Part shown: piece by piece, positions 8,029 to 60,538 of the stretch | Numbering within the stretch: the first letter of the stretch is position 1 | How the letters are laid out: each line of letters starts with the position of its first letter | Assembly: GCA_965660855.1 (NCBI GenBank) | Contig: CBFIBM010000007.1 | Span: forward strand, 4,061 to 68,060 | Direction: 5' to 3' | Source: an uncultured bacterium | GTDB taxonomy: Bacteria > Fidelibacterota > Marinisomatia > Marinisomatales > UBA1611 | Length of the DNA stretch: 64,000 nucleotides | Translations under genes and position numbers: made by a program | Notes under the pieces: model-generated | What the model was told of the DNA's origin: nothing | The model's database searches: none | What the model saw: the letters and a program-made list of their open reading frames with translations, nothing else

Positions 8029-8382
8029 GGGGGCGATCGGTTTCGACGGGGAATAAGATGTGTTGAGCTGCACGCGGAGAATGACAGTCTTCTCCTAAAT
8101 CAACTGTCACAACAATAAATGCCGATAACGGCTACATGGCTGCAGCTTAGTCTCGCAGCTCGCTCTGACTTCGATTAACCTATGGTCTGAGTTAAGAGCG
8201 TCACAAGCATAGGTTCGTTTCGAATATGTCTACTAATTCGAGACTAAAAATATGTAGGCTAGCCTTTCCTGATTTGTGTCACTGATAAAAGGTAAAGCGA
8301 AGTTAAAATCAGATGACTAAGCATGTAGATGCTTTTCATTACTTTTCTTCGGACGGGAGTTCGATTCTCCCCGCCTCCACCA
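8029..8382 (+). ncRNA. ssrA: tmRNA; tag peptide ADNGYMAAA* at 8121-8150
   Basis: 5' GGGGGCGATCGGTTTCGACGGG; T-arm GGGAGTTCGATTCTCCC; acceptor CGCCTCC-A-CCA with G.U pair; tag ORF ends in AAA-stop. Confidence 0.96.
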
Positions 8383-44116: not shown

Positions 44117-47100
44117 TTATATTCCTGCACCAGAATAGACTCCTCCTTTTTTTTCTAATTTAAGATCTTTTAACGTTGGTGACTTAACATTTATCTTAAA
44201 ATTGATTCCTTGTCCTAATCCATTAGGAGTCCAGTTTAAAGAAAGTTCCCAACAATGTAAGTCTCGATATACAGAAAAAGAATGATTTATTAAGTCTTGT
44301 TCAAGCAAATCAAATCTAGCTCTATAGGAAATCCGCCATTTATCCGTAATGTTTATTATAGAGTTTGAATTTGCCCAGAATGTTTTTGACTTATTTGAAG
44401 GATTTTGAGAATTCAAAGAGTAGCTTAAACTAATACTTGTACTCCAGAGTTGATTATTATTAATGGAGTTTTTTATGTTTTTAATAGAGTTAGTTATGCC
44501 TGAATCGACAAAATCACTATCGATAGATGTCGTATCTTTAAATGTTTTTCCAATATCATCATTTTGCTTCCATTTTTTACTTTTAATTCTAATACTCGTA
44601 GCTAATCTGGCATTCACTAATCTGGGAGTAATTAGTCCTGAAATATTTTTATTAAAATTAGCTAATCGTTTATTTTTTTCACTATCAAAAGAGTATAAAT
44701 CATGAGTCATTGATAAATCTAAATTTAATTTTTTAAGTATTTTTGATCTAATACTTGATCTTATATTTGTAAAATGAAGAGAGTCTGCAGCTAAGTTATA
44801 TCCAGAATTTATACGCCAATTAAATAAATCAACCTTTTTCTCTTCTTTTCCATCAAAGATTTTTGCTTGAAATATGTTATTTAATCCAAAAGTCATTGAT
44901 TTTTGTTCTGATTTTGGTGTGTTTCCAGCAATTGTACCTGAAAAACGATCCAAAGATCCAATCTCAATACCATCACTATCAAATTTCTTTTTTACATAAC
45001 CAAAATTTTTCCCAAATACTTCATCAGAAAAATCAGGAGTCCATGAATATCCAATATTTGGAGATATAACATGCCTAATCGATTTAATTGGACCAAACGG
45101 GATGGGGATTAATCCATAAACTTGAGTACTACTATTAATTGAGAACGATCCAGTTGTACGGGAATCAAAACCAATTCTCTCATTCTTAATAAATTTATTT
45201 TCATCCTCATCCCATATACCATCGTATGTCTTATTGACCCATGCTGATTTAATATTTATTCGAGGATTTATTGATATATATTTAAATAATTTTTGCGGAG
45301 CGTTAATTGCAGAGGTATGCACCCAACCATCATTTTCATCATTTTTTTGATTGTCGCTCCAAAAAAACTGATTTGAATCAGATTCTATCGACTCAAAATA
45401 AAATCGTTGAACATTTGTATAGTTAAGTCCATAGTTCCATGTAATTGTATTATACCATTTTTTATCAATTGCAGTAGTTGGGAAAAAATGACTTTGACCA
45501 TGTCTAAAAGAAAATTTTGGAAATGTTTGATTTTTAGAATTTAATTGAGTTCCAGATCGATTTGGGTTTATAAAATAATTGCTATTAAGATTTACCTTTT
45601 CTTGAATTAGTAAGTCCTGATTTGAGTAGAAACTAATGCTTATTGAATTTTTTGATTTTGGCCATCGTTTTGAATAAGAAATATTAGAGATTGCTTTTTG
45701 GTCCATTCTTTCTGTTTCTGTTAGTCCATATTTTTTATTGTAGTCTCCACTGGATGAATAAGTTATGTTTGCATTTAAAGATTGATTATTCCTCATTTGT
45801 TGTTTGTGATTCCATCGCACTGTGGTGCTGACTTTTTTATCTCCAAAAATATCACCAATATTTTTGGTACCACTTAGAAATTGTCTATTAGAAAAGTTTA
45901 AACTTCCATTAAATTTATAACGAAGCCGATATTGACTATTTACATTAAAGGTATATCCTTGTTTATCGCCAAACCCCATTGTGATTTTTGAATCCCAATA
46001 ATCATTTGGAGCCCAGTAAAACCCAAGTCCTTGTATATATTGTCCTCTGCTTTTGTTGTCGCCATATGAAGGCATTATCCATCCTGAGTGCCTTTGGCCA
46101 CCCTTATGAGGAAAAATTCCAAAAGGAATTCCCAGTATAGGTATTTGGGCAATATGTAAAATAATAGGACGAGCAACAACAATATCATTTTGTATAATTT
46201 TCATGTTATGTGATTCAAAATGGAAATGTGCAGTATCTAAGTCGCAGGTTGTATAGGTAGAATTTTCTATAAAAATTGTATTTGAAGTTTCATTTTGGAT
46301 TTTATTACCTCTGTAATAGCCATCATCTGCTTGTGTACGACCTTTTTTAATTCTACCTTTTTTAGTATCTAGGTTATATGTCATTCGCTCACCAGTCATT
46401 GGATCTTTTTTTGATTCTTTAATAATTGGTAATAAGATTTCGTTCTCATTAAAGATTGAATTTGGATAGGCGTTTAAAATATTATTATTCCAATTAATAT
46501 TTATATGACCAGCCTTTAAATTTGTTTTATCATGGGTGATACTTGAATTTCCAAAAAGGTCAGTTTCTTTAATTTTAAGCATATAATGAATTTTATCTGC
46601 TTCGTATAATATAGGAGAATTAATATTATTCTCAGTTGAATCAGGGTTATATTTTCCTTCTGCACCCCCATATACCTCTAATTCATTTATTTGATTTTCA
46701 TCAAAACTTATAATTATTGAATCGCCAGAGACTTGATTGTTACCTTTGTATAAAGAATCTTCAAAAACATGGTATAGAGTCTTGGACATACCATTAAGTT
46801 TTAAGGAGTCTAAGTTATCATTTGAAAAACTACCAAATAATTCTTTACCTTCAATTTTGTCTTTGAAAGAAACTTTTATTAACGAATCATCTACAGTTTT
46901 TATAAATCCAGTTTTAATGATATCTGATGTAGCTTTAGAGGGGATATAAATTTTTCTTAAGCTTTTATCAATATAGGTCAATTTTATCTCGTTTCCTGAT
47001 AACATTCTAGATTGATCAAATATTTTAGGATTACCTTGCAAGATAGTAGATTCATTGAGCCCATTGTAGTCCGCAATTTCTGATTCAGAAAAGATTGTAG

Positions 47101-47662
47101 AGTCTTGAATTTGAACATTTCCTACCGCAGAATAAGACAGTTTTTTAACGTTTGGATAATTTTTATATATAATTTTATCAGATTCTATTTTTTGTTTATT
47201 TTGTATTAGTACAACATTTTTTAAGGCGATTCCGCTATCTAATTCAGTAAAAACTCTTATCGTGTCTGCTTTTAAATCATAGTCTGATGTCCAGGTATGA
47301 GATTTTCCGATACCCAGTAGTTGGTTTGAATCAGAATAAAACTTTAATGTGTCTGCCACAAATGTTAAGTCTTCTTTAATCGCAGATACTTTATCATAAA
47401 GTATGGCTTGTCCTTTTTTTTCAAAATATTGACCTTTTTGACATTTTAAAATAAGGTCGCCTTTTTCAAAGATAACATTCCCTTCAATAAATCTTATACT
47501 TTCCCCATTTATTGTTTTACTTTCTAAAATATTTGCTTGTTTTAGAATTAATCTATTTTCAGAAATTATAAAATTTAAAAGGTATACAAATTTGAAAATA
47601 TATTTTGGTTTGATACATTTCAAAAATTTAATGATTTTAATATTAATTTGAGTGCAAAACAT
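44117..47662 (-). CDS. lptD: LPS assembly protein LptD-like with long N-terminal OstA/LptA jellyroll region
   Basis: YTTCDLD..HFHF, IPFGIFP, GFYWAPNDYWD, RDLHCWE, LKDLKLEK. Confidence 0.8.
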   Translation of the reverse strand: MFCTQINIKIIKFLKCIKPKYIFKFVYLLNFIISENRLILKQANILESKTINGESIRFIEGNVIFEKGDLILKCQKGQYFEKKGQAILYDKVSAIKEDLTFVADTLKFYSDSNQLLGIGKSHTWTSDYDLKADTIRVFTELDSGIALKNVVLIQNKQKIESDKIIYKNYPNVKKLSYSAVGNVQIQDSTIFSESEIADYNGLNESTILQGNPKIFDQSRMLSGNEIKLTYIDKSLRKIYIPSKATSDIIKTGFIKTVDDSLIKVSFKDKIEGKELFGSFSNDNLDSLKLNGMSKTLYHVFEDSLYKGNNQVSGDSIIISFDENQINELEVYGGAEGKYNPDSTENNINSPILYEADKIHYMLKIKETDLFGNSSITHDKTNLKAGHININWNNNILNAYPNSIFNENEILLPIIKESKKDPMTGERMTYNLDTKKGRIKKGRTQADDGYYRGNKIQNETSNTIFIENSTYTTCDLDTAHFHFESHNMKIIQNDIVVARPIILHIAQIPILGIPFGIFPHKGGQRHSGWIMPSYGDNKSRGQYIQGLGFYWAPNDYWDSKITMGFGDKQGYTFNVNSQYRLRYKFNGSLNFSNRQFLSGTKNIGDIFGDKKVSTTVRWNHKQQMRNNQSLNANITYSSSGDYNKKYGLTETERMDQKAISNISYSKRWPKSKNSISISFYSNQDLLIQEKVNLNSNYFINPNRSGTQLNSKNQTFPKFSFRHGQSHFFPTTAIDKKWYNTITWNYGLNYTNVQRFYFESIESDSNQFFWSDNQKNDENDGWVHTSAINAPQKLFKYISINPRINIKSAWVNKTYDGIWDEDENKFIKNERIGFDSRTTGSFSINSSTQVYGLIPIPFGPIKSIRHVISPNIGYSWTPDFSDEVFGKNFGYVKKKFDSDGIEIGSLDRFSGTIAGNTPKSEQKSMTFGLNNIFQAKIFDGKEEKKVDLFNWRINSGYNLAADSLHFTNIRSSIRSKILKKLNLDLSMTHDLYSFDSEKNKRLANFNKNISGLITPRLVNARLATSIRIKSKKWKQNDDIGKTFKDTTSIDSDFVDSGITNSIKNIKNSINNNQLWSTSISLSYSLNSQNPSNKSKTFWANSNSIINITDKWRISYRARFDLLEQDLINHSFSVYRDLHCWELSLNWTPNGLGQGINFKINVKSPTLKDLKLEKKGGVYSGAGI

Positions 47663-47712
47663 GACAACCTAAATTTACATACCTTTTTAATCAAGCGAGA
47701 AAGGAAGATAAA

Positions 47713-48132
47713 ATGAGTTCTATAAAAAATAAAATTTTCATTAGTATAATTTTTTTTGGATTATACTGTACAAATAAAAGGAGTGTGGAAATAATGAGTA
47801 ATGATCTAAAAATAGAAGACATTATAGTAGGCGAAGGTGTTGAAGCAAACGATTTTAATAAAGTTATTGTTAATTATACGGGTTCACTTGAAGATGGTTC
47901 CATTTTTGATTCATCTTTAAATCCAGGAAGAGAACCATTCTCTTTTACATTAGGAGTTGGATCTGTTATTAAAGGTTGGGATATTGGAGTAAAAGGAATG
48001 AAAGTTGGAGGGAAAAGAAAATTAACTATTCCACCAGAATTAGGATATGGTAAAAATGGAGCAGGTGATGTTATTCCGCCAGGGGCTACTCTAATCTTTG
48101 AAGTTGATTTATTAAACGTAGAAGCTTATTAA
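47713..48132 (+). CDS. FKBP-type peptidyl-prolyl isomerase
   Basis: [41 protein letters not shown]. Confidence 0.95.
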
Positions 48133-49681
48133 GAGAAATTATAGTTTCGCAGTTTCTAAAATATCTTAAAATTATAATTTTATAAACTGATTTTTTTTTA
48201 AGAAAAAAAATATAAAAAAAATTAGTATAAAACAAAAAATACAGTAGCCTTAAATTTAATTTATCTTTTTTTATGAGTGCTATTTTTTTATTTTTTTTTA
48301 TTTTTAATATTTTATAATTGTTTATCTAAACAAAAAATTTTTTACATTTTTTTTGGGGGAAATAGAATATTTTATTTGGGAAAAAAGTCACAAGATCTAT
48401 TAGTTATAAAATCAGATAATTAATTAAAAGAATTCTAGAGTTTTTTTAATCAACATTTTTAATATAATTGAATTTTTATTTAAATGATGATAATAAAAAA
48501 AATAACTAAAATATAGTTTATAAGATTGTATATAATTTTTACTTATTTGATATAATTAACACTTTTATTAATTATTTAATTATATGATTCAATATTGAAT
48601 TATTTAGTTATTTTTTTGGTCAATGTATTTTATATAAAATTCACTATTCTATTTGTCTTTTTTTTTTAACAGTGTACAATTTTTAGACATAAGAGTTCCT
48701 AAACAAATATATGTTTATTTCAATATAAAAATATGTTGATATAAAAGAATGTTTATAAATAAAATATTAAACATAATCAGAAAATGATATGGAATTATTT
48801 AATAGAATTTATTTTGATTATGAACTAAAGGTCGATGGAAAATTAATAAAAGATATAGTAAAAATATATTGACAAAACATTGACTTTTTTAAATGAATTA
48901 TGGAAATAAAGAAAGATAGTATGTTTTTTAAAGAATAGTTAAACATTGACTATTATATCTTAATAAATCGAACAATTATCTTTTTTTATCAACTAATGAA
49001 TTTATGTTTATTAAGTAGAAATATTATTTTATTTTTTAATGAGATCATCATTAATGGTATAGAAATATTTTGAATAATAATAGATTGAAATAACTCTTAA
49101 AAATTAAGTATACATATATTAAAAGAGTACTGTTTGAAGATTAAATCTCAATCTAGTTAAAACTGTAAATATATTATTGAATTAAATATTCAATATGTTT
49201 CAATAAAAAAATATAAGGAGATTGAAAAATTATTAAAAAAAATGTGGATATCTTAAATGAAAATAAAGATTATTATTATTTATAATTCTTATAATTATTT
49301 GACTAAATCTATGTATTATATTGGTACACTAGAATTAAAATTAAAGTGTTCCTATAAATAAAATTACAAGGGGTTGGATATTTGTTTTTTCAAAAGATAA
49401 TAAATGAGTTTTTTTTAAAGTTTTTTTTAATAATTAACATATGATTAATGAGGATTAGATAAGTTTATATTCTATGAAATTAATTATAAGTTTATAATGA
49501 TGATATTATAATTATTTATAATATGACACTTGAAATATTTAAGATGATTTAGAAAAATAAAATAACATATTATTATCCCCAGTAGCACACTAAACAATTA
49601 ATAGTTTTGTAATATTAAAAATAATTTTTATTATTTTTAATAAATAATTCTAATAAATATATTTGTAAAAATTATTAATTA

Positions 49682-50216
49682 TTTGTGCTATTTATATATA
49701 TTAAATATTTATTTCATGAATATTTAATTATATCTTGTATCAATTATTTGTTATTTATCTAACTAAAATAAATTTTTTTAACAATATTATTTTAAATAAT
49801 AGCACCTAATATTTATAATATGTAGATATATTATTTAGTTTTTCCATATAATTTTCATATAATCAATTCAATCTTACATATATAAATATTTTTAATATAT
49901 GTATAATTGTATAAATAATTTGATATATAATTTTTTAGGATATATCACTCTGGATTTTCAATATAATAGATACTCAATCAATAATTATTATTTTAAATAA
50001 ACACATCTTTATAATGTGTAATTGAAAATTAAAAATTAATTTATTTTTAAATATTATATCATATTTATCATGTAGATATTTAATATTTTTTAATGTTAAA
50101 TATTCATTAAAATATCAAAATAACCATGATTATCTGATTTGAAAACACTTTTATTGACCATCAGATCAGATATATACACTTGTATTAAGTTTATTTTTTT
50201 TTGTGCTATTTATATA
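49682..50216 (+). repeat. 17-bp direct repeat TTTGTGCTATTTATATA (49682-49698 and 50200-50216)
   Basis: exact duplicate read from the sequence. Confidence 0.85.
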
Positions 50217-50428
50217 ATTTAAAAAAAATAGTTTAAATAAATATTTTTTATAAAAATATAAAAAAGGTTATTTTTATACTCAATTTATGAAAATTAGTAT
50301 GATATAACTTTTATAAATCTATAAATTTTATTCTACAATAGAAGATATATAAATTCAGTTATTTTAATATCTAATAATTTAATTTATATTAAGATTAATT
50401 ATAATAGTGTGCTAAATTTAAAAGGTTT

Positions 50429-51148
50429 ATGAATATTTGTATAAAAAATAATATAAAAAATTTTAAAGAAGTAAATTATTTAGAATTATTTGAATCAGTA
50501 AAAAAAAGTAATTATAAACATAATTTAGAAAACATGAAATTCTCTGATACGATATTTAACTTTAAAAGATATCTCAAACCTAACTTGAATGAAATCCAAT
50601 ATGCAAATCTTGATCAGTTACCTAATCTTAATGAGGATATTGAGAGAACAAGAAGAATCTATAAAAGGATTCAAGAATTCATACCAAAGAAAATTTTGCA
50701 CATACAATCAGAGAAAATCACATTAGATAAACAATCCTTTCGATTAACTATTCAACAGTATAAAAAGTCTAATTCTTTGATAATGGATAAATTAAAAAAA
50801 TGTAAAAATCAATCTAAAGAATATAATATAGAGATAAAACATAGGATACGATATGTATATAAGATCTATTCTTATGTAATACCTTCACTATACATAATTA
50901 AAAGACCATCATATAATGTGGTCCAGTGTAAATGGAAGTTTATGGGGTTAGTTCAAAAACAAATCCATTTAGGGACATTTAAAAAAGTAGGTTCTTTAAA
51001 TGAGGAAATGTTAAAAAACATATCTATAAAAAAAATTAACGAAAAGTATAACGGTTTCTTTGATAACCTATTATTAAAAAATATTCTTTTGGAAAAGAAA
51101 AAATTAACAAAATGGTGTAATGATATTAATTATAGATCAAAAAAATAA
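50429..51148 (+). CDS. orphan basic protein, possibly DNA-binding
   Basis: 239-aa ORF, Lys-rich, one Ala; stop 2 nt from the MTase stop (convergent). Confidence 0.6.
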   Translation: MNICIKNNIKNFKEVNYLELFESVKKSNYKHNLENMKFSDTIFNFKRYLKPNLNEIQYANLDQLPNLNEDIERTRRIYKRIQEFIPKKILHIQSEKITLDKQSFRLTIQQYKKSNSLIMDKLKKCKNQSKEYNIEIKHRIRYVYKIYSYVIPSLYIIKRPSYNVVQCKWKFMGLVQKQIHLGTFKKVGSLNEEMLKNISIKKINEKYNGFFDNLLLKNILLEKKKLTKWCNDINYRSKK

Positions 51149-51150
51149 TT

Positions 51151-52569
51151 TCAATCAATTTTCAATGAGTTATTTATCCTTCTAATGGACAATTCAACAA
51201 ATCTTTTATTTAATTCATAACCTATAAATTTTCTATTCAGTTCTAAAGAGACTATTCCGGTTGTACCACTTCCTGAAAACGGGTCTAAGATGGTATCTCC
51301 CTTTTTTGATCCACAATTTATTGGTAGGTGACATAATTCTTTTGGAAATACAGCTATATGTTCAATGTTTTCCATTCCAATCTTTTTACCAATAGGTTTG
51401 GAATGTTTAGATTGTTCAATAAAATCCAATGGGATTTTACCTTTGCTGTTCTGTATTATTGATGTGTGTCTTTGAAATTTATCCTGGATAGTATAATGCC
51501 TAGGACTTTTAACTTGAATAGGATTTTCCTGTTTGTAGGGAACTCGAATTGAATCTGCATCGAAAAAATAATTATTTTTTTTTGTAAAAAAAAATATGAA
51601 TTCATTTGATGTACCAAGTCTTGTTTTGACAGATTCTGGTTTTGGGTTAGTTTTATGCCATATAATACAATTTCTTTGTATCCATCCATTTCTCATCATT
51701 TCTATTGCAAATTGGTGAGGTATACTTGATAAACATCCATTAATATATGTATCTCCAATAACAACCCAACAAGAACCATCATCAGATAAAACTCTGTAAC
51801 ATTCATTGAAAACTTCCATTAGGTTTTCAATGTATGCATTTACCGTATCTTCTAACCCGATTTGATTTTTATTACCATAATTCCTATGTGAATAATATGG
51901 TGGGGAAGTTAGAATCATATCTATGGACCTATCCTCCAAATCAGACATGTTATTTGATGATTTATTAAAAATTTTAAAATCTTCATATTGAATTCTATCT
52001 GAGTCGTTTGAAATTTCTTCATTTTTAATAGTTTCTCTAATTTTTTTTCTTTTAGCTTCAATATAAGATTGATTTATAGTTAGACTTCCTTTATCAATTA
52101 AATCAATGAGTGTTGGAAATACTTTATCTATATACATAAGTTTGTAGATTTTATCACCACTAATACTTAATTTTTTTGATAACTTTTCTCGATTTCCACT
52201 TCTGTTGATATCAACAGAAGTTAAATCTGATCTAAAACCCTGTCTTTTTTTATAATATTTTGATAATATTTTTATCTCATTCAATATTTCTCTTGATGTT
52301 TTTACTCTTTGTGAGTTATGTGATATTATATGTAGAGGTTCGTCTTCTAATTTCAAGTCTTTTATGACAACCTCTACCTCTTTAATATTAAGAGATCTTA
52401 ATGCTTCTAACCTCCGGTTACCACTTAAGACCTCATTTTTTTTATTAATAACTAATGGTTCTAAAAGTCCAATTTCTATAATGGATTTCTTTAAAGTTTC
52501 AATATCAGATAATATATAAACCTTAGAATTGAATGGATGATGTTTTAATTCTTTTAAATTGATTTTCAT
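51151..52569 (-). CDS. ParB/Srx N-terminal domain + HTH fused to beta-class N4-C/N6-A DNA methyltransferase
   Basis: LKKSI..IGLLEPL...SGNRR (ParB); TSPPY (motif IV) precedes LDPFSGSGTT (motif I); HIAVFP. Confidence 0.9.
   Translation of the reverse strand: MKINLKELKHHPFNSKVYILSDIETLKKSIIEIGLLEPLVINKKNEVLSGNRRLEALRSLNIKEVEVVIKDLKLEDEPLHIISHNSQRVKTSREILNEIKILSKYYKKRQGFRSDLTSVDINRSGNREKLSKKLSISGDKIYKLMYIDKVFPTLIDLIDKGSLTINQSYIEAKRKKIRETIKNEEISNDSDRIQYEDFKIFNKSSNNMSDLEDRSIDMILTSPPYYSHRNYGNKNQIGLEDTVNAYIENLMEVFNECYRVLSDDGSCWVVIGDTYINGCLSSIPHQFAIEMMRNGWIQRNCIIWHKTNPKPESVKTRLGTSNEFIFFFTKKNNYFFDADSIRVPYKQENPIQVKSPRHYTIQDKFQRHTSIIQNSKGKIPLDFIEQSKHSKPIGKKIGMENIEHIAVFPKELCHLPINCGSKKGDTILDPFSGSGTTGIVSLELNRKFIGYELNKRFVELSIRRINNSLKID
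52198..52221. repeat. 24-bp perfect palindrome ACTTCTGTTGATATCAACAGAAGT inside the ParB-MTase gene
   Basis: self reverse-complementary; in frame, encodes residues 117-124 TSVDINRS. Confidence 0.95.
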
Positions 52570-52884
52570 TTTATAATTTTTGTAATTAGTACAACTGTAA
52601 TAATAAATTGAAACTAAAAAAAATGCTAGATAATAATAACTAAAAATTTGGAGTAATATTCTTTTATCTTTAATTAATTTTATTAAATAATAAAAATTTA
52701 AATACGAATTTAATTGGATTTTATTTTATCTTGAGAGATAATTTTTTATAAATATATTTCTTTATAAATCATTATATATTAAGATTTAGTTATTCAAAAT
52801 ATCTAGATTTTCAATGAAAATGAACCCCAAAAGATCTCTATAAGATTTTCTATTATATTGATTAATTTTGATCTTCGATTAATA

Positions 52885-52899
52885 GCCTCGAAATGAGGC
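52885..52899. terminator. short hairpin, possible terminator/regulatory site
   Basis: GCCTC-gaaat-GAGGC in otherwise GC-poor DNA, ~310 nt beyond the yidD-like stop; no long U-tract. Confidence 0.3.
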
Positions 52900-53208
52900 A
52901 TTACACAGAATTTTCATTTATTAGATTTTCGATAAAATAATTAGAATCATTGTATAAAAATCTAATAAAGATGATATGAATAAATTTTTAAACTATTTTT
53001 TAAAAAAATGGGATTTATAAATTTTTTGAAAAAATTAATAAATTAGGATTTCTAATTTGATAAATGAGATATACTTTTTCTATATTTTATTTAAAATATA
53101 GAAGTAACTTTTTGTCAAAAAGTTTATCATTAAGAAGAGTGAAAAAAAATAAATTGTTGTCCAATTTAATTGTATTATACAACTAAAAAAAATTATTGAT
53201 TTGAAATT

Positions 53209-53844
53209 TTAATTCTGGATATTTAAAGGCACTTGATAATATTTTGCTGACCTCCATCCACCATATATTTCACCTAAGTAAGTGTAAAAACAAATTCCAA
53301 TAAAGATTGGTGTAAGAATTTTATTATCGCTTCTTATTAAATTGTATGTAGTTGACCCATAAAGAAAAAACGACCAAAGACCGGAAATTCCATCAAATTT
53401 TCGACCTGCATAAAACCTTCCAGATCCAGGAATTAAAGTAGAAATAAGAGCTGCTAAAATTGGAGATTTATTTGAATGAATGTTTGATTTAATTATTACA
53501 GGGTCGATTATTCTTCCATCATTAGCATGAAAGGGTCGATTTTGTATTAATTGATAATGATATGCTCTAGGATTACATCTAGTAATCCTTTCCGATGCAA
53601 TTACCCCACCTCTTATAATTCCATATTTGTTTATAGCATCTGTTCCATAATTTGAACAACTAGGATAGAACTGACAATTAAATAAATTTGTATTGTAAGA
53701 AATTCTCTGCCATCCAGCAATTGGGATAAGACCTATTTTGTTCAATAACGAAACATTAGGTGATTTAATTAGAGAATCTGCTGGATATTTTTCTTGGGAT
53801 AAAATAAATGAAAAGGTTATTAAAAAAAGGATTAATTGTTTCAT
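53209..53844 (-). CDS. YidD-like domain fused to a C-terminal membrane domain
   Basis: CQFYPSCSNY...RITRCNP (YidD); SPILAALISTLIPGSGRFY. Confidence 0.75.
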   Translation of the reverse strand: MKQLILFLITFSFILSQEKYPADSLIKSPNVSLLNKIGLIPIAGWQRISYNTNLFNCQFYPSCSNYGTDAINKYGIIRGGVIASERITRCNPRAYHYQLIQNRPFHANDGRIIDPVIIKSNIHSNKSPILAALISTLIPGSGRFYAGRKFDGISGLWSFFLYGSTTYNLIRSDNKILTPIFIGICFYTYLGEIYGGWRSAKYYQVPLNIQN

Positions 53845-53906
53845 GATAAAAATTAGTTATAAATAGTTTAATCTTAAACCTGTTAGTTTTTTAGATTTAA
53901 GGTGTT

Positions 53907-54233
53907 ATGGAATCCATTATAGAAACAATATTTTCTAATTCACTCTACATATTCATCACTGGGTTATTATTTTTATTTATTATTTATACCCTAATTAAAA
54001 AAATTTTAAAACTAACATTTTTTTTCTGCTTGTTATTATTTTTTTATTTATTGTACGTATATCATTTTAGTGGTGAATTTCCTAAATCCGTTGAAGAATT
54101 AAAAGAATCAGTTTCTAAAAATGCTGATAAGGTTAAAAATATTGCCACAGAATCAATTGATGAAGCAAAATCTAAAACTTCAAAAATTATTGAAAAGAAA
54201 GTTGATGAGAAAATAAATGAGATTTTTGAATAA
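53907..54233 (+). CDS. membrane hypothetical protein
   Basis: two TM helices plus charged coiled tail. Confidence 0.65.
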   Translation: MESIIETIFSNSLYIFITGLLFLFIIYTLIKKILKLTFFFCLLLFFYLLYVYHFSGEFPKSVEELKESVSKNADKVKNIATESIDEAKSKTSKIIEKKVDEKINEIFE

Positions 54234-54241
54234 AAATATTT

Positions 54242-54493
54242 TTAGGGTATCAGATTAAATAAAGAGTTCATTATTTTATACAGGATAATTGAATATATAA
54301 AAGCTAATGATAATAATGATCCAGGACTTATTCTTAATTGGACTCTATATTTACTGTATTTTTTCTTTTCATCGTATATACTTATAAGACTTTGTAAAGA
54401 TATTTTACTTAAATAGATACAAATCAAATAAATAAAGATTAAAATAATATGATCGCTGAAGGAAAGGGAATATAACCATTCTGATAAATTCAT
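54242..54493 (-). CDS. small two-TM hypothetical protein
   Basis: ORF coupled to the Nudix stop; two hydrophobic helices. Confidence 0.6.
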   Translation of the reverse strand: MNLSEWLYSLSFSDHIILIFIYLICIYLSKISLQSLISIYDEKKKYSKYRVQLRISPGSLLSLAFIYSIILYKIMNSLFNLIP

Positions 54494-55113
54494 AATATTT
54501 CCTTTAAAATAAATTTAAATTCAGAAATGATTAAAGAAGTTGCACCCCATATTTTTTGACTTTTTAAATGGAAATATGGAACAAACGCTTTTCTTTTATT
54601 AAAATATCGTATCTCACTTTTTAAGTTCTGCTCATTGAGTAGATCTTTGATTGGAATTGAAAATATTTTTGAGACTTCTTCTTTTTGAAGGATTATATTA
54701 GGTTTTTTATTAATCCATCCAATGAATGGATATACTTTAAAATTAGAAATTGGAACATAAATAGGTGTTAGTTCACCAATTATTTTAATGGACTTAGATT
54801 TTATACCAATTTCTTCATAGGATTCTCTTAAAGATGCGTTTTCTGGTGATTCCTCTTTTTCAACCATTCCTCCAGGTAAAGAAATTTGACCTTTATGATT
54901 AGCGACATGTTTAGATCGTTTTGTTAAAAAAAAATTCCATCCTGATTGATCTGGAAATAAACAGATTAAGACTGCTGCAATAGATGAACCTGTCAATGGT
55001 CGACTATTTTTTTTAAGATCTTTAAACCTTACTTTCATTATATCATGAGATTTCTTTCCGGGTAAATCTTTCATTAGTTGCTGATTTAATGAATTAATAA
55101 ATGTGTCAGTCAT
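54490..55113 (-). CDS. Nudix CoA pyrophosphatase (NudL-like)
   Basis: AAVL, HKGQISLPGG, LRESYEEIG, IWGAT; start moved to ATG 55113. Confidence 0.9.
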   Translation of the reverse strand: MTDTFINSLNQQLMKDLPGKKSHDIMKVRFKDLKKNSRPLTGSSIAAVLICLFPDQSGWNFFLTKRSKHVANHKGQISLPGGMVEKEESPENASLRESYEEIGIKSKSIKIIGELTPIYVPISNFKVYPFIGWINKKPNIILQKEEVSKIFSIPIKDLLNEQNLKSEIRYFNKRKAFVPYFHLKSQKIWGATSLIISEFKFILKEIL

Positions 55114-55159
55114 ATCTTTTAAATTATTTAATTTTGATTCAAATTGATAAACAATAAAA

Positions 55160-55798
55160 ATGAAATATAAACATATAATTTGGGACTGGAATGGCACATT
55201 ATTAGATGACTGTAAGGTTTGTGTAAAATCATTTAATCGGAGCTTAAAAAAAAGAAATCGTAGACCAATTAGTCTGGATAAATATAGATCAATTTTTACT
55301 TTCCCAGTAATAGACGCTTATAAAAAAGTAGGTTTTGATTTTAAAAAAGAATCATTTTCAAAAGTAAGTAATGAATTTGTTGAATTTTATGAAAAAAATT
55401 TTAAGAATGTATCTCTACATAATAATGCAAAAGAAATCCTTGAAAAAATAAGGTTACAAAATGTTACTCAATCTATTTTATCTGCTGGGAATCAAGATTT
55501 ATTAAATAATTGGTTAAACCAACACAAAATTTTCAAAACATTTCAAAATGTAGTTGGAGTCCAAAACCAACTTGCAAATGGGAAAATTGACCAGGGATTG
55601 AAATTAATAGAAAATTTAAAATTTAATAAAAAAGATATTGTTTTGATTGGAGATACTATACATGATAGTGATGTTGCTAAAAAAATGGATATTGAGTGTA
55701 TTTTAGTAGATCATGGTCACGTAAATAATAAACGTTTAATAAAAACTGGCAGGAGGGTATGCTCTAATATTAATAGTATTTTTGAATTAATAAACTGA
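55160..55798 (+). CDS. HAD family hydrolase
   Basis: WDWNGTLLDD, IGDTIHD. Confidence 0.92.
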   Translation: MKYKHIIWDWNGTLLDDCKVCVKSFNRSLKKRNRRPISLDKYRSIFTFPVIDAYKKVGFDFKKESFSKVSNEFVEFYEKNFKNVSLHNNAKEILEKIRLQNVTQSILSAGNQDLLNNWLNQHKIFKTFQNVVGVQNQLANGKIDQGLKLIENLKFNKKDIVLIGDTIHDSDVAKKMDIECILVDHGHVNNKRLIKTGRRVCSNINSIFELIN

Positions 55799-58700
55799 GT
55801 CGGATATTTTTAATACATCATAGATGTCTATTTTCAGGTTATAATCTAAATCTGCAACTAAGAACTCTTCTGGGGTTAAATTATTAAATCCTAAAATTGA
55901 ATTTGAGCATAATAAAATATCTAATAAAGATACTACACCATCACCATTTATATCACCTCTATTATTCAAAATGATATTTGGATCTATTGCTATTACTGTA
56001 ATTGAAGACTCGTTCATTTCATCGTTTAATCCTGAAATTAAAAGATTAACCTCGTAGACTCCCGGTTCATTGCAATAAAAGTAAGGATCATCAGAATTTA
56101 AAATTATTTCATTATTAAAGGTCCAAGATTTATCTCCAACAGGGCCAGTAGATTCATCAAAGAAATAGAAAAAATCAGGTATCATAATTATTTGGTTAAC
56201 AACTTTTGGTATTGATACGAGATTAGAAAATGAACCAAATGTAGTATTTTGAAGTTCTATCTTATCTTCAATTTCTGAAAACTGATCTGTATATATCTGG
56301 ATATAATTATAATTATTAGGGTGAATAAAGTCTAATGGAAAAGATGGAAAAGGCATTAAGGAATCCCATTCAATTAAACCGACATCATCAAACCATGAAA
56401 AACTAATTCCGGTATCAGGTACTGAACTATTTAATCTAATATCAAAGAACTCAGCATTATCGGGGATAGAAATATTTTCCCAATATTTACGCCAAGGTGA
56501 ATCACCATTAATAGAATCTTCTAAGGAAATCGTTTCAATATTGTCACCAGTCCTGTTTATAGAACTTCGAAATTCAAGGGTAACATTTTTACCGTTATTC
56601 GTTTTGAGATATCCATGTAAAGTATATTCTAATTCGTTTTTTATAGGTATTTTTTCTTCAAAATTAGTGACAATATTTCCAGGAGAATCAGCATATCTTA
56701 TATGCTGAGCAGCTGCATCACCTCTCCTAAAAACAGAATCTTGTATTCCTTCATTTGGACTATTAAAATTCCAAAGAGTACTACCTTCATTTTCAAAGTT
56801 ATTCATCCAAACTTTTTCTTTTCCTAATCTGTAATAAATAATATTTAAGTCACTATTTAAAACTCGAGATAAACTTCCTGCATTAGATAATTTTATTGGT
56901 ATGGACTCATAAAGTTCGATGCCATTTATCGATAAAGTATCTTTACTAGTTATCAATTTATTGTAATAAAAATTATTGGATTCCATTACGGTTGTATCCA
57001 TAATTACATGAGCAATATTCGAATCTATATTCACATGTACATAAGTATCTAGTTTTCGTGATTTGTTTGCAACATCATTCAATATATAGTTTCCTAACTC
57101 TCCAGTAGCAGGTTTCGTTAAATAATCATCAATATATAATGGAGAAATAGAATATTCGTAAATGCCTGTATCATTTGATTTACTGTTTAGAATCATAGAG
57201 GGGTAAGTCTCTGGATAATTTAAATCAAATATGAAATTACCAAGAGAATGTGCAATTAACTTTTCATTGTAAACTTCGACACCCTGTATAATATGAGGGT
57301 GATGTACAATAACAAGATCAGCTCCTTCATCAATTGCAAAGTGACGGATAGCCCTATCCCACATTTGAGGTTGATCTAACCTTGTGGAATAATCCTCTTC
57401 TTCATCCAGATATGTTGTACTAAAACCTAAATTACTTGCAGGGTTGGATTTAATTCGAGCAAAATCATCCCTACTAGATGTATAATAATCATAATCACTA
57501 CCAGGTTCAAAGGAGTACTCGCTTCCACTATGAAATTCTATGACTATTAAATCAGATATGTCTTTAACAGATTCAATCTGTTTTCTTATATAATAAGGTG
57601 TCATATATGCAAAACCAGATTTATTTTCGCCAGCATTTAAATAAGGTTGATAATTATTATATTGTCCGGTTCGATCACTTGAAGCAAGAAAAGAGATTGT
57701 TCTTCCATTAACTGATTTAAATGCTGGAAGGTATGCTTCTTGACTATTTAGTCCAGCTCCAGAAAAAATTATACCCGATTCTCTTAAAACATCTTGCGTT
57801 TGAATTAAACCAGATTCCATATAGTCTAAGATGTGGTTATTAGCAATGCTTACAACATCAATTCCTGCATTAACCATGGCATTTACGCTATTAGGGTTTG
57901 CTTTAAATACAACACCTTTTGTTGGGTGAGGAGTATCATGGTTTGTTAAAGGAATTTCTAAGTTTGCTACGGTTATGTCAGCTGCAGAACCAAGAATTTC
58001 ATATGTAGGCTCAAATAAAGCATCTGCACCTTGATTTGTAACGATTCCATCTATATCTTCAAATCGTCTTCCTAACATGATATCTCCAATGAAGTTCATG
58101 GTAATAGCAGATGTATTACCATTTATGGAATCTAAAACTATATCTTTGGAGTCCCAACCTATAAGGCCAGTTTCGTCTTCTACAACAAGAATAACTTTAT
58201 ATTGTATATTTTCTTGAGAATTAAATTGATGAATAGGGTTCTTTAAATTAGAATAATTTCCATCTCCAAAATCCCAATTATATGTAAAAAATTGAGAGTC
58301 CATATCTTCAATTATAGAAGAAAATGAAAAAGAATTTCGTGTATGTGAAGTTATTATATTAATATTATTTGTCTCAATTCTAACATTGGGAGGTATAGGC
58401 AAGTCTGATGTTATATTTCTAATAATGCTAAATCGAATACTCCCTGGATTTGATAGTGAATCATCGTGTTCATTGACGAAAGTAATTTTTGTAATCACAC
58501 TTAAACTATCATAAATAGACAACCAATCATCTCCTAAAGGCAGTCTATAAGAATTCCAATTGCTATTTTGGAATGCTCCTTGATAAACAGGTATCCAGTC
58601 TTCAATATTTAATAATTCAGTTCCAGAAAATGCATATCTGAGAATTTTATTTTCTGAATTTTCAAATAATACTCCTTGTATTTCAGATATACTATCAATT

Positions 58701-60538
58701 TTCACAAATATTTGTAGTATTGTCGACGAATCTATTTGAGTTGGGTTTATTTGAATAGACTTCCAAGTATTCCCAAATAAGGAAAGAGTTGAATTGTTTT
58801 CAGGTATTAATTCAGTTGTATCTACAATATAACCAAATTGATCTTGGTCCTCATCAATAACTGATTCAATAACTATATTCCCATCAAATGAGAATAGTGT
58901 TGTTGGAGGCGAATGGCCAGGTAAAATATTTGTAGAGATTTCAGACCAATCACTCGTATTATTAAAATGGTCAATAGCACGAATTTGGAAAAACCAAGGA
59001 ATTGCATTGTTAAATCCATAAAGGATCAGTTCATTTTTTCTCATATATTGTAAATCTGGGTAACTATCTCTATCTATGAGAGTTGGATTATACATTAGAG
59101 AATCTGAACTAATTTTAATTTGATATGATTTAAAATTTGTATCGGTTGATGGGATCCAACTCAATTTAATCTGGTCAGGATTATCCTGATTTTGGGAAAA
59201 TAAATTTTCAGGATTTGAAGGAGGCATTTGATCATCATGATTTTCCCAATCAATTAAATATTCATTTAATGAATTAATAAATGGCTGATAATATTGTAAT
59301 ATTTTAGAAAAATTATTTATTCCTGTAGGGTAAAGATTAGAAGTGTAGGTATCATCATTTATTATTTCTAGATTATCGAGAAGATCAGGTTTTTCATCAA
59401 ATTCTATATGTACCCAAGTTTCGTATATAGAGTAATTATTGACTTTTGATTGGAGATTAATCATTTGAACACCATTTGAAGGACCTCTTAACTCTGATGC
59501 TAAAGTAATTTCAAATTTTTCATTTCCATTATCATAAAAACAATAATCATCATAATATGCTTCATAATAATCAGTAACATGTAAAGGATTATGATTTCCG
59601 AATTCATTTTCAAGAATGGGATATTCAGGTGTGAAATTTATAATATCAAAATTATCATTTGATATATCTCTTATTGGTTTTGTAGTGAAGGGTTTTTGTT
59701 CGCCTGCAGCTAAGATAATTGATTTTCTATCAAGATGCGACTCATTGTCAAAACTATGAATAGCTAACACTAAAGGTGAATGGGGTTCCTGATTGAATAA
59801 AGGACTAGTAATTTTTTCTTGAAATTTTTGAAAAACAGAAAAAGGGTATCGTGATGGATCCGAATGAGATTTATTATTTGAAAACTCCCCCTCTTCAGAC
59901 CATTGAACTTCTCTCCCGGCACTACTAATCATAAAAGCATAGGACTTTGTTTGAATGAAAATATTTAAAGCTAAATACGGAGCTATAAAATCATCACATG
60001 GATGCGGAACTTGAATAACAACTTGATTCTTATCGGCATCTGGATTAATTATATACATTCCCCAACTATTATTGAAGCTGCCATAAATATCATCTAATTC
60101 ATTTTCAGGCTGGTTATTATCTACATAAGAAGAGTCTAATTTTTCTCGAATTATGTGATATGTATCATTTGTTATTGTGTCATTAAAAACGACAAGTTCA
60201 TAAAAAAAAGTTTCTATGGAATCTATCAATAATGAATCAACTTGAGGTAGGTTCCCGCTTATAAAACTTTCAAAAATATTTTCCCAATAAACTAGAGTTG
60301 CAGAATTTTGATTTAATTTTCTATGATTCCCAAATCCATTTTTTTGAACGTCTAAAAAATCTGGACCGTAATCATTATAGTTAGGTTCTGCAATACCTTC
60401 AGTAACATGACTTAACCAGTTATCGTATGATGAATTAGGAGCAGATCCACCAAAGAATTGAAGGAGGTTACCATCTTCAAATATTACTTCTGAAAAAGAT
60501 ATTGAAACAAAAATTGGAATATAAAATAAAATTTTCAT
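55787..60538 (-). CDS. secreted multidomain CapA (PGA_cap metallophosphatase) protein with FN3, PKD and C-terminal dockerin
   Basis: GDIMLGR, ANLE, ANNHILDY, EFHSG, HHPH, SLGNF; WDFGDG; GDINGDGVVSLLD...ADLDYNLKIDIYD. Confidence 0.85.
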   Translation of the reverse strand: MKILFYIPIFVSISFSEVIFEDGNLLQFFGGSAPNSSYDNWLSHVTEGIAEPNYNDYGPDFLDVQKNGFGNHRKLNQNSATLVYWENIFESFISGNLPQVDSLLIDSIETFFYELVVFNDTITNDTYHIIREKLDSSYVDNNQPENELDDIYGSFNNSWGMYIINPDADKNQVVIQVPHPCDDFIAPYLALNIFIQTKSYAFMISSAGREVQWSEEGEFSNNKSHSDPSRYPFSVFQKFQEKITSPLFNQEPHSPLVLAIHSFDNESHLDRKSIILAAGEQKPFTTKPIRDISNDNFDIINFTPEYPILENEFGNHNPLHVTDYYEAYYDDYCFYDNGNEKFEITLASELRGPSNGVQMINLQSKVNNYSIYETWVHIEFDEKPDLLDNLEIINDDTYTSNLYPTGINNFSKILQYYQPFINSLNEYLIDWENHDDQMPPSNPENLFSQNQDNPDQIKLSWIPSTDTNFKSYQIKISSDSLMYNPTLIDRDSYPDLQYMRKNELILYGFNNAIPWFFQIRAIDHFNNTSDWSEISTNILPGHSPPTTLFSFDGNIVIESVIDEDQDQFGYIVDTTELIPENNSTLSLFGNTWKSIQINPTQIDSSTILQIFVKIDSISEIQGVLFENSENKILRYAFSGTELLNIEDWIPVYQGAFQNSNWNSYRLPLGDDWLSIYDSLSVITKITFVNEHDDSLSNPGSIRFSIIRNITSDLPIPPNVRIETNNINIITSHTRNSFSFSSIIEDMDSQFFTYNWDFGDGNYSNLKNPIHQFNSQENIQYKVILVVEDETGLIGWDSKDIVLDSINGNTSAITMNFIGDIMLGRRFEDIDGIVTNQGADALFEPTYEILGSAADITVANLEIPLTNHDTPHPTKGVVFKANPNSVNAMVNAGIDVVSIANNHILDYMESGLIQTQDVLRESGIIFSGAGLNSQEAYLPAFKSVNGRTISFLASSDRTGQYNNYQPYLNAGENKSGFAYMTPYYIRKQIESVKDISDLIVIEFHSGSEYSFEPGSDYDYYTSSRDDFARIKSNPASNLGFSTTYLDEEEDYSTRLDQPQMWDRAIRHFAIDEGADLVIVHHPHIIQGVEVYNEKLIAHSLGNFIFDLNYPETYPSMILNSKSNDTGIYEYSISPLYIDDYLTKPATGELGNYILNDVANKSRKLDTYVHVNIDSNIAHVIMDTTVMESNNFYYNKLITSKDTLSINGIELYESIPIKLSNAGSLSRVLNSDLNIIYYRLGKEKVWMNNFENEGSTLWNFNSPNEGIQDSVFRRGDAAAQHIRYADSPGNIVTNFEEKIPIKNELEYTLHGYLKTNNGKNVTLEFRSSINRTGDNIETISLEDSINGDSPWRKYWENISIPDNAEFFDIRLNSSVPDTGISFSWFDDVGLIEWDSLMPFPSFPLDFIHPNNYNYIQIYTDQFSEIEDKIELQNTTFGSFSNLVSIPKVVNQIIMIPDFFYFFDESTGPVGDKSWTFNNEIILNSDDPYFYCNEPGVYEVNLLISGLNDEMNESSITVIAIDPNIILNNRGDINGDGVVSLLDILLCSNSILGFNNLTPEEFLVADLDYNLKIDIYDVLKISDSVY

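Follow-up and report, generated by a model that had tools for sequence, protein, structure and literature searches.

GTGCTA hexamers held at fixed positions in a drifting, gene-free tract beside a ParB-methyltransferase gene of an uncultured Marinisomatales bacterium

Why should a long, gene-free and very AT-rich tract hold most of its GpC dinucleotides in copies of a single short word? The question is raised by the spacer at positions 48133-50428 of a 64,000-nt stretch of DNA from an uncultured bacterium of the order Marinisomatales (hereafter the window; G000:C7:4061-68060, in an assembly of 2.09 Mb, 31% GC and 81 contigs). The spacer extends from the stop of an FKBP gene (48132) to the start of a 239-aa open reading frame (ORF) at 50429, hereafter the small gene, and is without any ORF of at least 50 aa. 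It contains eight GpCs, six of them inside GTGCTA or its reverse complement TAGCAC; the remaining two are at 48149 (TCGCAG) and 48247 (TAGCCT). An initial annotation, made from the letters alone, had stated that every GpC between 48250 and 50600 belongs to this hexamer, and the count agrees (6/6, with none in 50429-50600 and the exceptions left of 48250). Comparison with related loci indicates that the hexamer, together with a second word, ATTGAC, is kept in place in a tract whose other sequence drifts, and that these words are inherited along with the two genes beside them.

The related loci come from a metagenome scan, which gave seven (L031-L037). L036 and L037 are identical to L035 in motif positions and tblastn coordinates and were counted once, and L038, a chance match of 28 residues, was left out. 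The six loci compared are the window (W) and L031-L035, the latter five representing independent marine metagenome lineages with this insert at the corresponding place; contig ends truncate L031 and L032, and the four loci with a complete spacer have 2127-2433 bp at 14.5-15.2% GC. Slots were located by listing every GpC in every spacer with its distance from the small gene start. The words and the two adjoining genes are as follows, with the range of distances of each slot in the loci that have it:

48133..50428, no strand: gene-free spacer, 2296 bp, 14.8% GC
48277..48282, + strand: GTGCTA site 1, about -2150 from the small gene ATG; perfect orthologue in L035 and L033; slot 1 at -1985 to -2150 in 3 loci
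48868-48873 and 48879-48884, + strand: two ATTGAC words, 11 nt apart; same pair and spacing in 4/4 complete loci
48945..48950, + strand: third ATTGAC word, 64-68 nt after the second; 4/4 complete loci
49583..49588, - strand: GTGCTA site 2 (TAGCAC on the + strand), -844; perfect in 5/5 loci reaching it; slot 2 at -819 to -915 in 5 loci
49685..49690, + strand: GTGCTA site 3, -742; perfect in 4/5 loci, GTGCTC in L033; slot 3 at -725 to -812 in 5 loci
49800..49805, - strand: GTGCTA site 4 (TAGCAC on the + strand), -627; perfect in 4/5 loci, GTGCTT in L034; slot 4 at -620 to -678 in 5 loci
50203..50208, + strand: GTGCTA site 5, -224; perfect in 6/6 loci; slot 5 at -212 to -229 in 6 loci
50409..50414, + strand: GTGCTA site 6, -18, directly 5' of the small gene's Shine-Dalgarno-like AAGG/GGAG; perfect in 3/6 loci; slot 6 at -18 in 5 loci and -16 in L031
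50429..51148, + strand: small gene, encoding a basic protein of 239 aa, the predicted reader of the hexamer
51151..52569, - strand: gene of a fusion of a ParB N-terminal (CTPase-fold) domain with a beta-class N6/N4 DNA methyltransferase, 472 aa, tail to tail with the small gene

Conservation in the syntenic islands of relatives had been proposed as a check of the hexamer, and its outcome is strongly positive: a perfect GTGCTA is found in 25 of the 30 orthologous slots, alike in order, strand and spacing. The five imperfect slots differ by one or two bases (GTGCTC and GTGCTT, and at site 6 GAGCTA, ATGCTT and ATGCTA), and the six spacers hold no perfect copy beyond the 30 slots. In L034 no counterpart of site 1 was found; the word closest to its place is TAGCTA at -2288. 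Successive sites are separated by 94-103 nt (sites 2 to 3), 105-134 nt (3 to 4), 396-465 nt (4 to 5) and 194-213 nt (5 to 6). In a scan of all hexamers over the six spacers, GTGCTA/TAGCAC ranks first of 350, with 25 copies against 0.42 expected (Poisson p 1e-35). The position matrix of the 30 slots (G28 T29 G30 C30 T30 A27) has its information in the six core bases only, the flanks carrying at most 0.4 bit.

Whole-tract alignment with MAFFT cannot register the sites, and the conserved words were used as anchors instead. Between anchors the loci are no more alike than shuffled DNA: identity is 0.576 against 0.574 after shuffling for a3-s2, 0.616 against 0.614 for s4-s5 and 0.637 against 0.629 for s5-s6, so that spacer DNA across lineages is 0.58-0.64 identical, the same as for shuffled DNA. 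Because the slots are held while the inter-site DNA stands at shuffle level, the hexamers, and their spacing, are under purifying selection. The ATTGAC words behave likewise, standing in direct order at about -1560, -1549 and -1484 from the small gene start in the four complete loci; ACATTGAC, i.e. (AC)ATTGAC, occurs eight times against 0.10 expected in the k-mer scan of the six spacers. Hexamers and ATTGAC words are established as functional cis-elements of a conserved module with three parts, namely the spacer array, the small protein and the ParB-methyltransferase, and the tract behaves as neutral filler of conserved length that carries nine selected words. The differences in spacing among loci lean to multiples of about 10 bp (P about 0.001 for periods of 9.5-10.5, against 0.09-0.17 for periods of 7, 8 and 13), a hint at helical phasing of the sites in a statistic that is inflated by values common to related loci.

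The abundance of the hexamer in the window is likewise far from random expectation. The rough estimate of less than one chance copy was sound, as Markov models predict 0.13 (order 0), 0.07 (order 1) and 0.16 (order 2) copies in the spacer against the six observed, and 1000 simulated spacers for each of these orders never contained more than two. The enrichment check suggested along with it is strong for orders 0-2, but a model of order 3 trained on these same 2.3 kb arrives at about the observed number (mean 5.3 copies, P>=6 = 0.42); this model was set aside as circular, since the motif supplies nearly all TGC and GCT contexts of the spacer. In the genome as a whole the hexamer is ordinary, with 451 copies (0.216 per kb), an observed/expected ratio of 1.06 under an order-4 model and rank 3312 of 4096. 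The tightest six-copy cluster of the assembly is the spacer itself (2132 bp) and the next tightest spans 3143 bp. The latter belongs to C15:314-12534 of the same assembly, a region with four of the nine next-densest six-copy clusters, which may be a repetitive coding region.

Longer repeats around some copies had been taken as meaningful. They are indeed present: TTTGTGCTATTTATATA forms a 17-nt direct repeat at 49682-49698 and 50200-50216, and a 10-nt inverted pair lies at 49583-49592 and 50405-50414, ending 14 nt before the ATG at 50429. Both are, however, specific to this lineage and extend into flanks that carry no information in the matrix. The 13-nt core of the TTTGTGCTATTTATATA repeat has exact matches nowhere else in the 2.09-Mb assembly, and with up to two mismatches it occurs 125 times genome-wide, against 139 for the reversed control. 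The further TAGC/GCTA cores listed in the initial annotation (48245, 52625 and 52883) do exist in the window, but they are without counterpart in the relatives. Upstream of genes (744 upstream regions genome-wide) there is no enrichment of GTGCTA (14 copies against 10.4 expected), of ATTGAC (29 against 29.7) or of TTGACA (24 against 31.7). A genome-wide regulon of GTGCTA was rejected on this lack of upstream enrichment and on a 13-mer count below that of the reversed control. Since nothing in the genome at large uses the words, their readers are probably the island's own two proteins.

The composition of the tract does not call for a special cause. Eight of the ten one-kilobase windows below 19% GC in the whole assembly lie in the spacer, yet its 14.8% GC equals that of 4-fold degenerate sites nearby (16.0% overall and 12.7-17.9% per gene; eight genes, 44117-60538, n=1335 codons), so that an AT-richness close to that of the spacer is what neutral DNA of this genome should have. 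Searches for other content gave little. Rfam covariance models had no match at E<=1 in 46000-55000 on both strands, and scans of the spacer tract found no tRNA and no terminator; a sigma-70 promoter scan, uninformative in itself, gave 45 promoter-like sites against 59.2 +/- 6.9 in shuffles. Conserved small ORFs were considered and rejected: 219 stop-to-stop segments of at least 20 aa yielded a sole cross-locus match of 20 residues (E 0.009). The inter-site segments show no conserved strand skew across loci.

All loci share the gene order LptD, FKBP, AT-rich spacer, small gene, ParB-methyltransferase, YidD and subsequent genes. Identity of the metagenome loci to the window proteins is 64-71% for LptD, 79-85% for FKBP and 54-61% for NUDIX, compared with 61-68% for the ParB-methyltransferase and 50-55% for the small protein, i.e. 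the island proteins diverge about as fast as their neighbours. Six diverged lineages carry the array, the three ATTGAC words and both genes, the small one and that of the ParB-methyltransferase, co-inherited as one module. Because gene order is kept and the island proteins diverge like their neighbours, this inheritance has been vertical through a deep split. DNA nearly identical to the island, with at least 70% of its sampled words, is present in 18 short-read runs from eight studies, labelled marine, aquatic or not at all; five of these runs possibly represent the source sample itself. FKBP, the small gene and the methyltransferase are covered by contigs from two metatranscriptome libraries (two studies), which shows presence in RNA libraries rather than proven transcription. 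No listed contig piece from these libraries falls in 48134-50428, and being contigs they are silent on transcription of the tract.

Of the two candidate readers, the small protein is strongly basic (pI 9.9; 50 K+R against 22 D+E). The initial annotation had called its ORF an orphan, which no longer holds: 13 homologues with 50-74% identity were found in a collection of 5.8 billion proteins, and it has nine representatives among 1.84 billion protein cluster representatives. Within the order it is present in one of 201 species genomes, the window's own (two genomes of the same genus are 55-60% complete), and its relatives are absent from the 33 pattern matches in species-representative genomes and from the 138 in viral contigs. 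It occurs only together with the array (6/6 loci). PADLOC, NCBIfam, PHROGs and Pfam hold no family for it, a profile search against the PDB gave one chance match only, and the leads from a protein atlas are weak (at most 0.78). The AlphaFold2 model (pLDDT 92.9) predicts a beta-hairpin and helix at the N-terminus, then a long helical hairpin (67-150), and a three-stranded sheet with helices at the C-terminus (153-232); modelled alone, the C-terminal domain reaches pLDDT 85.8 with a strand-strand-strand-helix secondary structure. This domain has weak matches to the AP2 domain of Plasmodium SIP2 (6sy0; Foldseek probability 0.57, E 0.63) and to the arm-binding domain of HPI integrase (3jtz; Z 3.9, rmsd 3.4 over 53 residues). 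Both belong to the same fold class, a three-stranded sheet packed on a helix, and a possible AP2/integrase arm-type domain at residues 150-210 may serve as a lead only.

The ParB-methyltransferase is recognised by Pfam in both of its parts (ParB_N with 28.0 bits at a cutoff of 26.3, N6_N4_Mtase with E 6e-53), and PHROG ParB-like partition families span residues 2-198. Its motif I (DPFxGSGTTG), motif IV (TSPPY) and ParB box (GNRRLEA) are invariant in 6/6 loci, the box agreeing with the N-terminal nucleotide-binding pattern GxxRxxA. Pfam finds neither a helix-turn-helix (HTH) nor a ParB C-terminal dimerisation domain in the fusion. The nearest solved relative of the methyltransferase is M.MboIIA (E 1.5e-19), and Ser in motif IV (SPPY) goes with N4-cytosine enzymes. 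The enzyme co-occurs with the array in 6/6 loci, and the spacer upstream of its own gene is without GTGCTA in 4/5 loci examined. A word containing G and C (TCTGGCTT, TATGGCAT or TCTAGCAT) lies at 52618-52630 and at the matching place in L031, L032, L033 and L035, 51-66 nt before the start of the ParB-methyltransferase gene, and possibly serves as that gene's own control word. Among viral contigs, 288 of 336 pattern matches encode a methyltransferase relative, and the top segments of the best 80 viral loci are limited to residues 167-471, the methyltransferase domain, with 26-39% identity. A survey of ParB-CTPase fusions describes ParB-N6N4 methyltransferase fusions as common in phages and prophages, with no assigned function (10.1101/2025.10.10.680097), and related plasmid methyltransferases are described as acting on single strands (PMC7736820).

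The hexamers are likely docking sites of one of these two adjacent proteins. We tentatively favour the small protein as the one that docks, with sites 5 and 6 serving self-control and the distal sites being bridged, a reading whose chances we put a little below even. One copy of the sheet-plus-helix domain at the C-terminus would recognise each hexamer; a single small domain is suggested as reader because the site is short and asymmetric. The long helical hairpin would join protomers, and distant sites could in this way be bridged in one nucleoprotein complex. The sites at -18, beside the ribosome-binding site, and at -224 would let the small protein control its own gene, and the ParB-methyltransferase is probably active on this tract as well, whether it loads there or methylates it. 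The spot just 5' of a Shine-Dalgarno-like word is a classic autoregulator position, and in all six loci site 6 (-18/-16) and site 5 (-212 to -229) stand where an autoregulatory operator is expected, as far as position goes.

Several observations weigh against docking of the small protein. Searches with the whole protein or the C-domain gave no PDB match at E<=0.001 (best Z 4.9), and Pfam AP2 (E<=10) and other DNA-binding families match 0/14 members of the small-protein family. Site 6, the best placed for autoregulation, is the least conserved, and four of the six are 600-2150 nt away from the nearest gene, where simple autoregulation does not explain them. The variant slots were chosen by position and nearest GpC, which forces G3 and C4 of the matrix to 30/30. 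Finally, an asymmetric 6-bp word is just as typical a target of methyltransferases, and the one encoded here accompanies the array no less strictly.

The hexamer may instead be the recognition site of the adjacent ParB-N6/N4 methyltransferase and the array an epigenetic control region, perhaps a switch with the small protein, in which the methylation state would set small-gene expression or the access of a binder. We consider this unlikely, though far from negligible, and it is compatible with docking of the small protein, much as Dam operates with Lrp or OxyR. The enzyme is intact and conserved, with invariant catalytic motifs, and RNA-library contigs from two studies cover its gene. Its putative target is a short, asymmetric word with both C and A in it; under the SPPY rule the invariant C, or else the opposite strand, would receive the mark. 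Both a hexamer that is not avoided (1.06) and an island with no other ORF of at least 50 aa that could be a nuclease are consistent with a solitary methylase of regulatory function. Being a methylation target does not, however, place a site under selection for a fixed position, so that a reader or a regulated promoter would still be required; no gene is near sites 1-4, the hexamer is missing from the methyltransferase's own upstream spacer in most loci, and a full-text literature search for the hexamer with 'methyltransferase' or 'recognition' returned nothing but unrelated plant work. Improbable, in our estimate, is a ParB-type clamp track, on which the fusion would load at ATTGAC or GTGCTA with nucleotide and slide while the small protein stops or locks it, the outcome being long-range control or a centromere- or origin-like complex left by a domesticated mobile element. 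The ParB N-domain with its invariant arginine box is consistent with this, as is a spacer length kept despite sequence drift, which is expected if distance matters. Other genera carry different cargo at the FKBP-YidD junction, and work on KorB with KorA/TrbA (RK2) and on BisD (ICEclc) describes kilobase-range ParB-CTPase clamps with small locking partners (PMC11790492, PMC13584720, PMC12409273). Yet no canonical ParB HTH or C-terminal dimerisation domain was detected in the fusion, the island has no ParA, no Rep, no integrase and no att-like repeat, none of the sites is a palindrome, and there is neither a GC-skew turn at the island nor a clear DnaA box; the survey of fusions leaves the role of the N6N4-methyltransferase type at 'perhaps anti-defense' (10.1101/2025.10.10.680097). 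A chromosomal replication origin was rejected, with no skew turn at the island on the 92.6-kb contig and other genera of the family lacking the tract; a search for DnaA boxes found none perfect and 16 hits with at most two mismatches, two of them with one mismatch and the rest with two.

It is very improbable that AT-rich non-coding transcripts arise from both strands of the spacer with the hexamers as their promoter, initiator or processing signals. Some copies resemble TGn plus TA, as at the beginning of an extended -10 element, the fixed pattern involves both strands, and site 6 lies where a short leader of the small-gene mRNA would begin. But upstream regions across the genome show no excess of GTGCTA or of ATTGAC/TTGACA, the matrix has no information past the hexamer and hence no -10 hexamer, shuffles contain more promoter-like sites than the tract does, and terminators were not found; a transcript is further disfavoured by the lack of strand skew, of an Rfam family and of sequence conservation between sites. 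Hardly credible, finally, is chance or passive survival, by which functionless copies would be leftovers of a duplicated segment or would have been spared by methylation from C-to-T decay. Two copies do share the 17-nt repeat, and the match of the spacer to 4-fold sites in GC content (14.8% vs 16.0%) indicates that decay of unselected G/C is real. The data already contradict this reading: 25/30 slots are perfect amid inter-site DNA at shuffle level (p 1e-35), and flanks that are not conserved speak against a duplicated segment. Shielding from GpC loss, which the initial annotation had offered as a cause, fails as the sole one because the A/T positions are kept too (T2 29/30, T5 30/30, A6 27/30): one protected cytosine cannot hold a whole hexamer while neighbouring bases turn over.

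By comparison with known systems, the module resembles operator arrays, methylation switches and ParB clamps in its possible way of working, and it fails the defining tests of parS, iterons, restriction-modification and oriC. It shares with the KorB and BisD systems, ParB-family regulators with small partners on RK2 and ICEclc (the three papers cited above), a ParB fold co-encoded with a small partner and short words spread over kilobases, and action at a distance is plausible. Unlike in those systems, the ParB fold is fused to a methyltransferase and no HTH was detected, the word is an asymmetric 6 bp rather than a palindrome, the module is chromosomal and vertically inherited in one marine lineage, and contact with the partner is only putative.

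Methylation-sensitive switches are formed by Dam with Lrp at pap, Dam with OxyR at agn43 and CcrM with GcrA. Like these, the module combines a solitary methyltransferase, a putative DNA-binding protein and few words at fixed spacing (sites 2 and 3 are about 102 nt apart), but the array measures 2.1 kb and lies mostly far from genes, and the enzyme and the putative reader are encoded beside it. Short oriented words in AT-rich DNA are also found at integrase arm-type sites and with ApiAP2 of Plasmodium, to which the fold matches are weak and not significant; there is no Pfam AP2 hit, no recombinase domain and no att structure.

The initial annotation had proposed a dispersed binding array, iteron-, parS- or operator-like. 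The fixed, conserved slots fit such an array, but the iteron-like and parS-like details do not hold. Plasmid iterons and parS are likewise repeated words in AT-rich DNA beside a ParB-like gene, yet iterons are tandem repeats of 17-22 bp, whereas these sites are 6 bp long, 94-650 bp apart and on both strands, and no Rep is present. The 30-slot matrix describes an asymmetric hexamer in place of the palindrome of about 16 bp of parS, and of ParABS the ParA and the ParB HTH and C-terminal domain were not found, while the nucleotide-binding box is present. Restriction-modification is at odds with the lack of an endonuclease ORF in the island and with a hexamer that is not avoided. Phage and prophage ParB-N6N4 methyltransferase fusions have the same domain pair, but here it belongs to a chromosomal module with a cis-array, and the viral contigs are without the small protein (0/138).

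Streamlined marine bacteria have very little non-coding DNA. A drifting spacer of 2.2 kb with nine fixed words therein is a natural experiment that marks which bases matter, and the words are tied to two unstudied proteins, a basic coiled-coil family without known relatives and a ParB-methyltransferase fusion. If the reader and the enzyme were identified, a first biological role for such a fusion and an example of kilobase-range control on a bacterial chromosome would become possible. It is a long shot, but conceivable, that all parts form one chromosomal device for long-range control, with a measured track of about 2.2 kb, nine address words, a ParB-fold methyltransferase that travels along it, a coiled-coil reader docking at GTGCTA to stop, lock or direct the enzyme, and heritable methylation as an on/off state.

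The module occupies an insert of 5 kb (48133-53208), which consists of the spacer, the 239-aa gene and the ParB-methyltransferase gene with its upstream spacer, and is flanked as follows:

47713..48132, + strand: FKBP-type isomerase gene, left flank of the insert
52570..53208, no strand: spacer upstream of the methyltransferase gene, 639 bp, 16.3% GC, no GTGCTA; right end of the insert
53209..53844, - strand: YidD-domain gene, right flank of the insert

Its only ORFs of at least 50 aa are the two genes described. In relatives from other genera of the family FKBP and YidD are directly adjacent and free of an insert (about 255 bp apart in G013, 96 bp in G012 and 109 bp in G015), and elsewhere the junction holds an unrelated ORF, of 443 aa in G004 (L023, C15:1727-3058) and of 257 aa in G011 (L027, C52:2201-2974). 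Because relatives have FKBP next to YidD or other cargo between them, 48133-53208 is a lineage-specific insert, and the junction looks like a variable, hard-to-assemble spot. In G007, G009 and G010 the contig stops less than 50 bp from the FKBP gene.

A second AT-rich stretch of the assembly, at C40:1063-2495 (about 1.4 kb, 16-21% GC in 500-bp bins), has one open stretch of at least 60 aa (62 aa, 1781-1966) and neither GTGCTA nor ATTGAC. Elsewhere in the window, a tmRNA gene is located at 8029-8382 on the + strand, with the tag peptide ADNGYMAAA.

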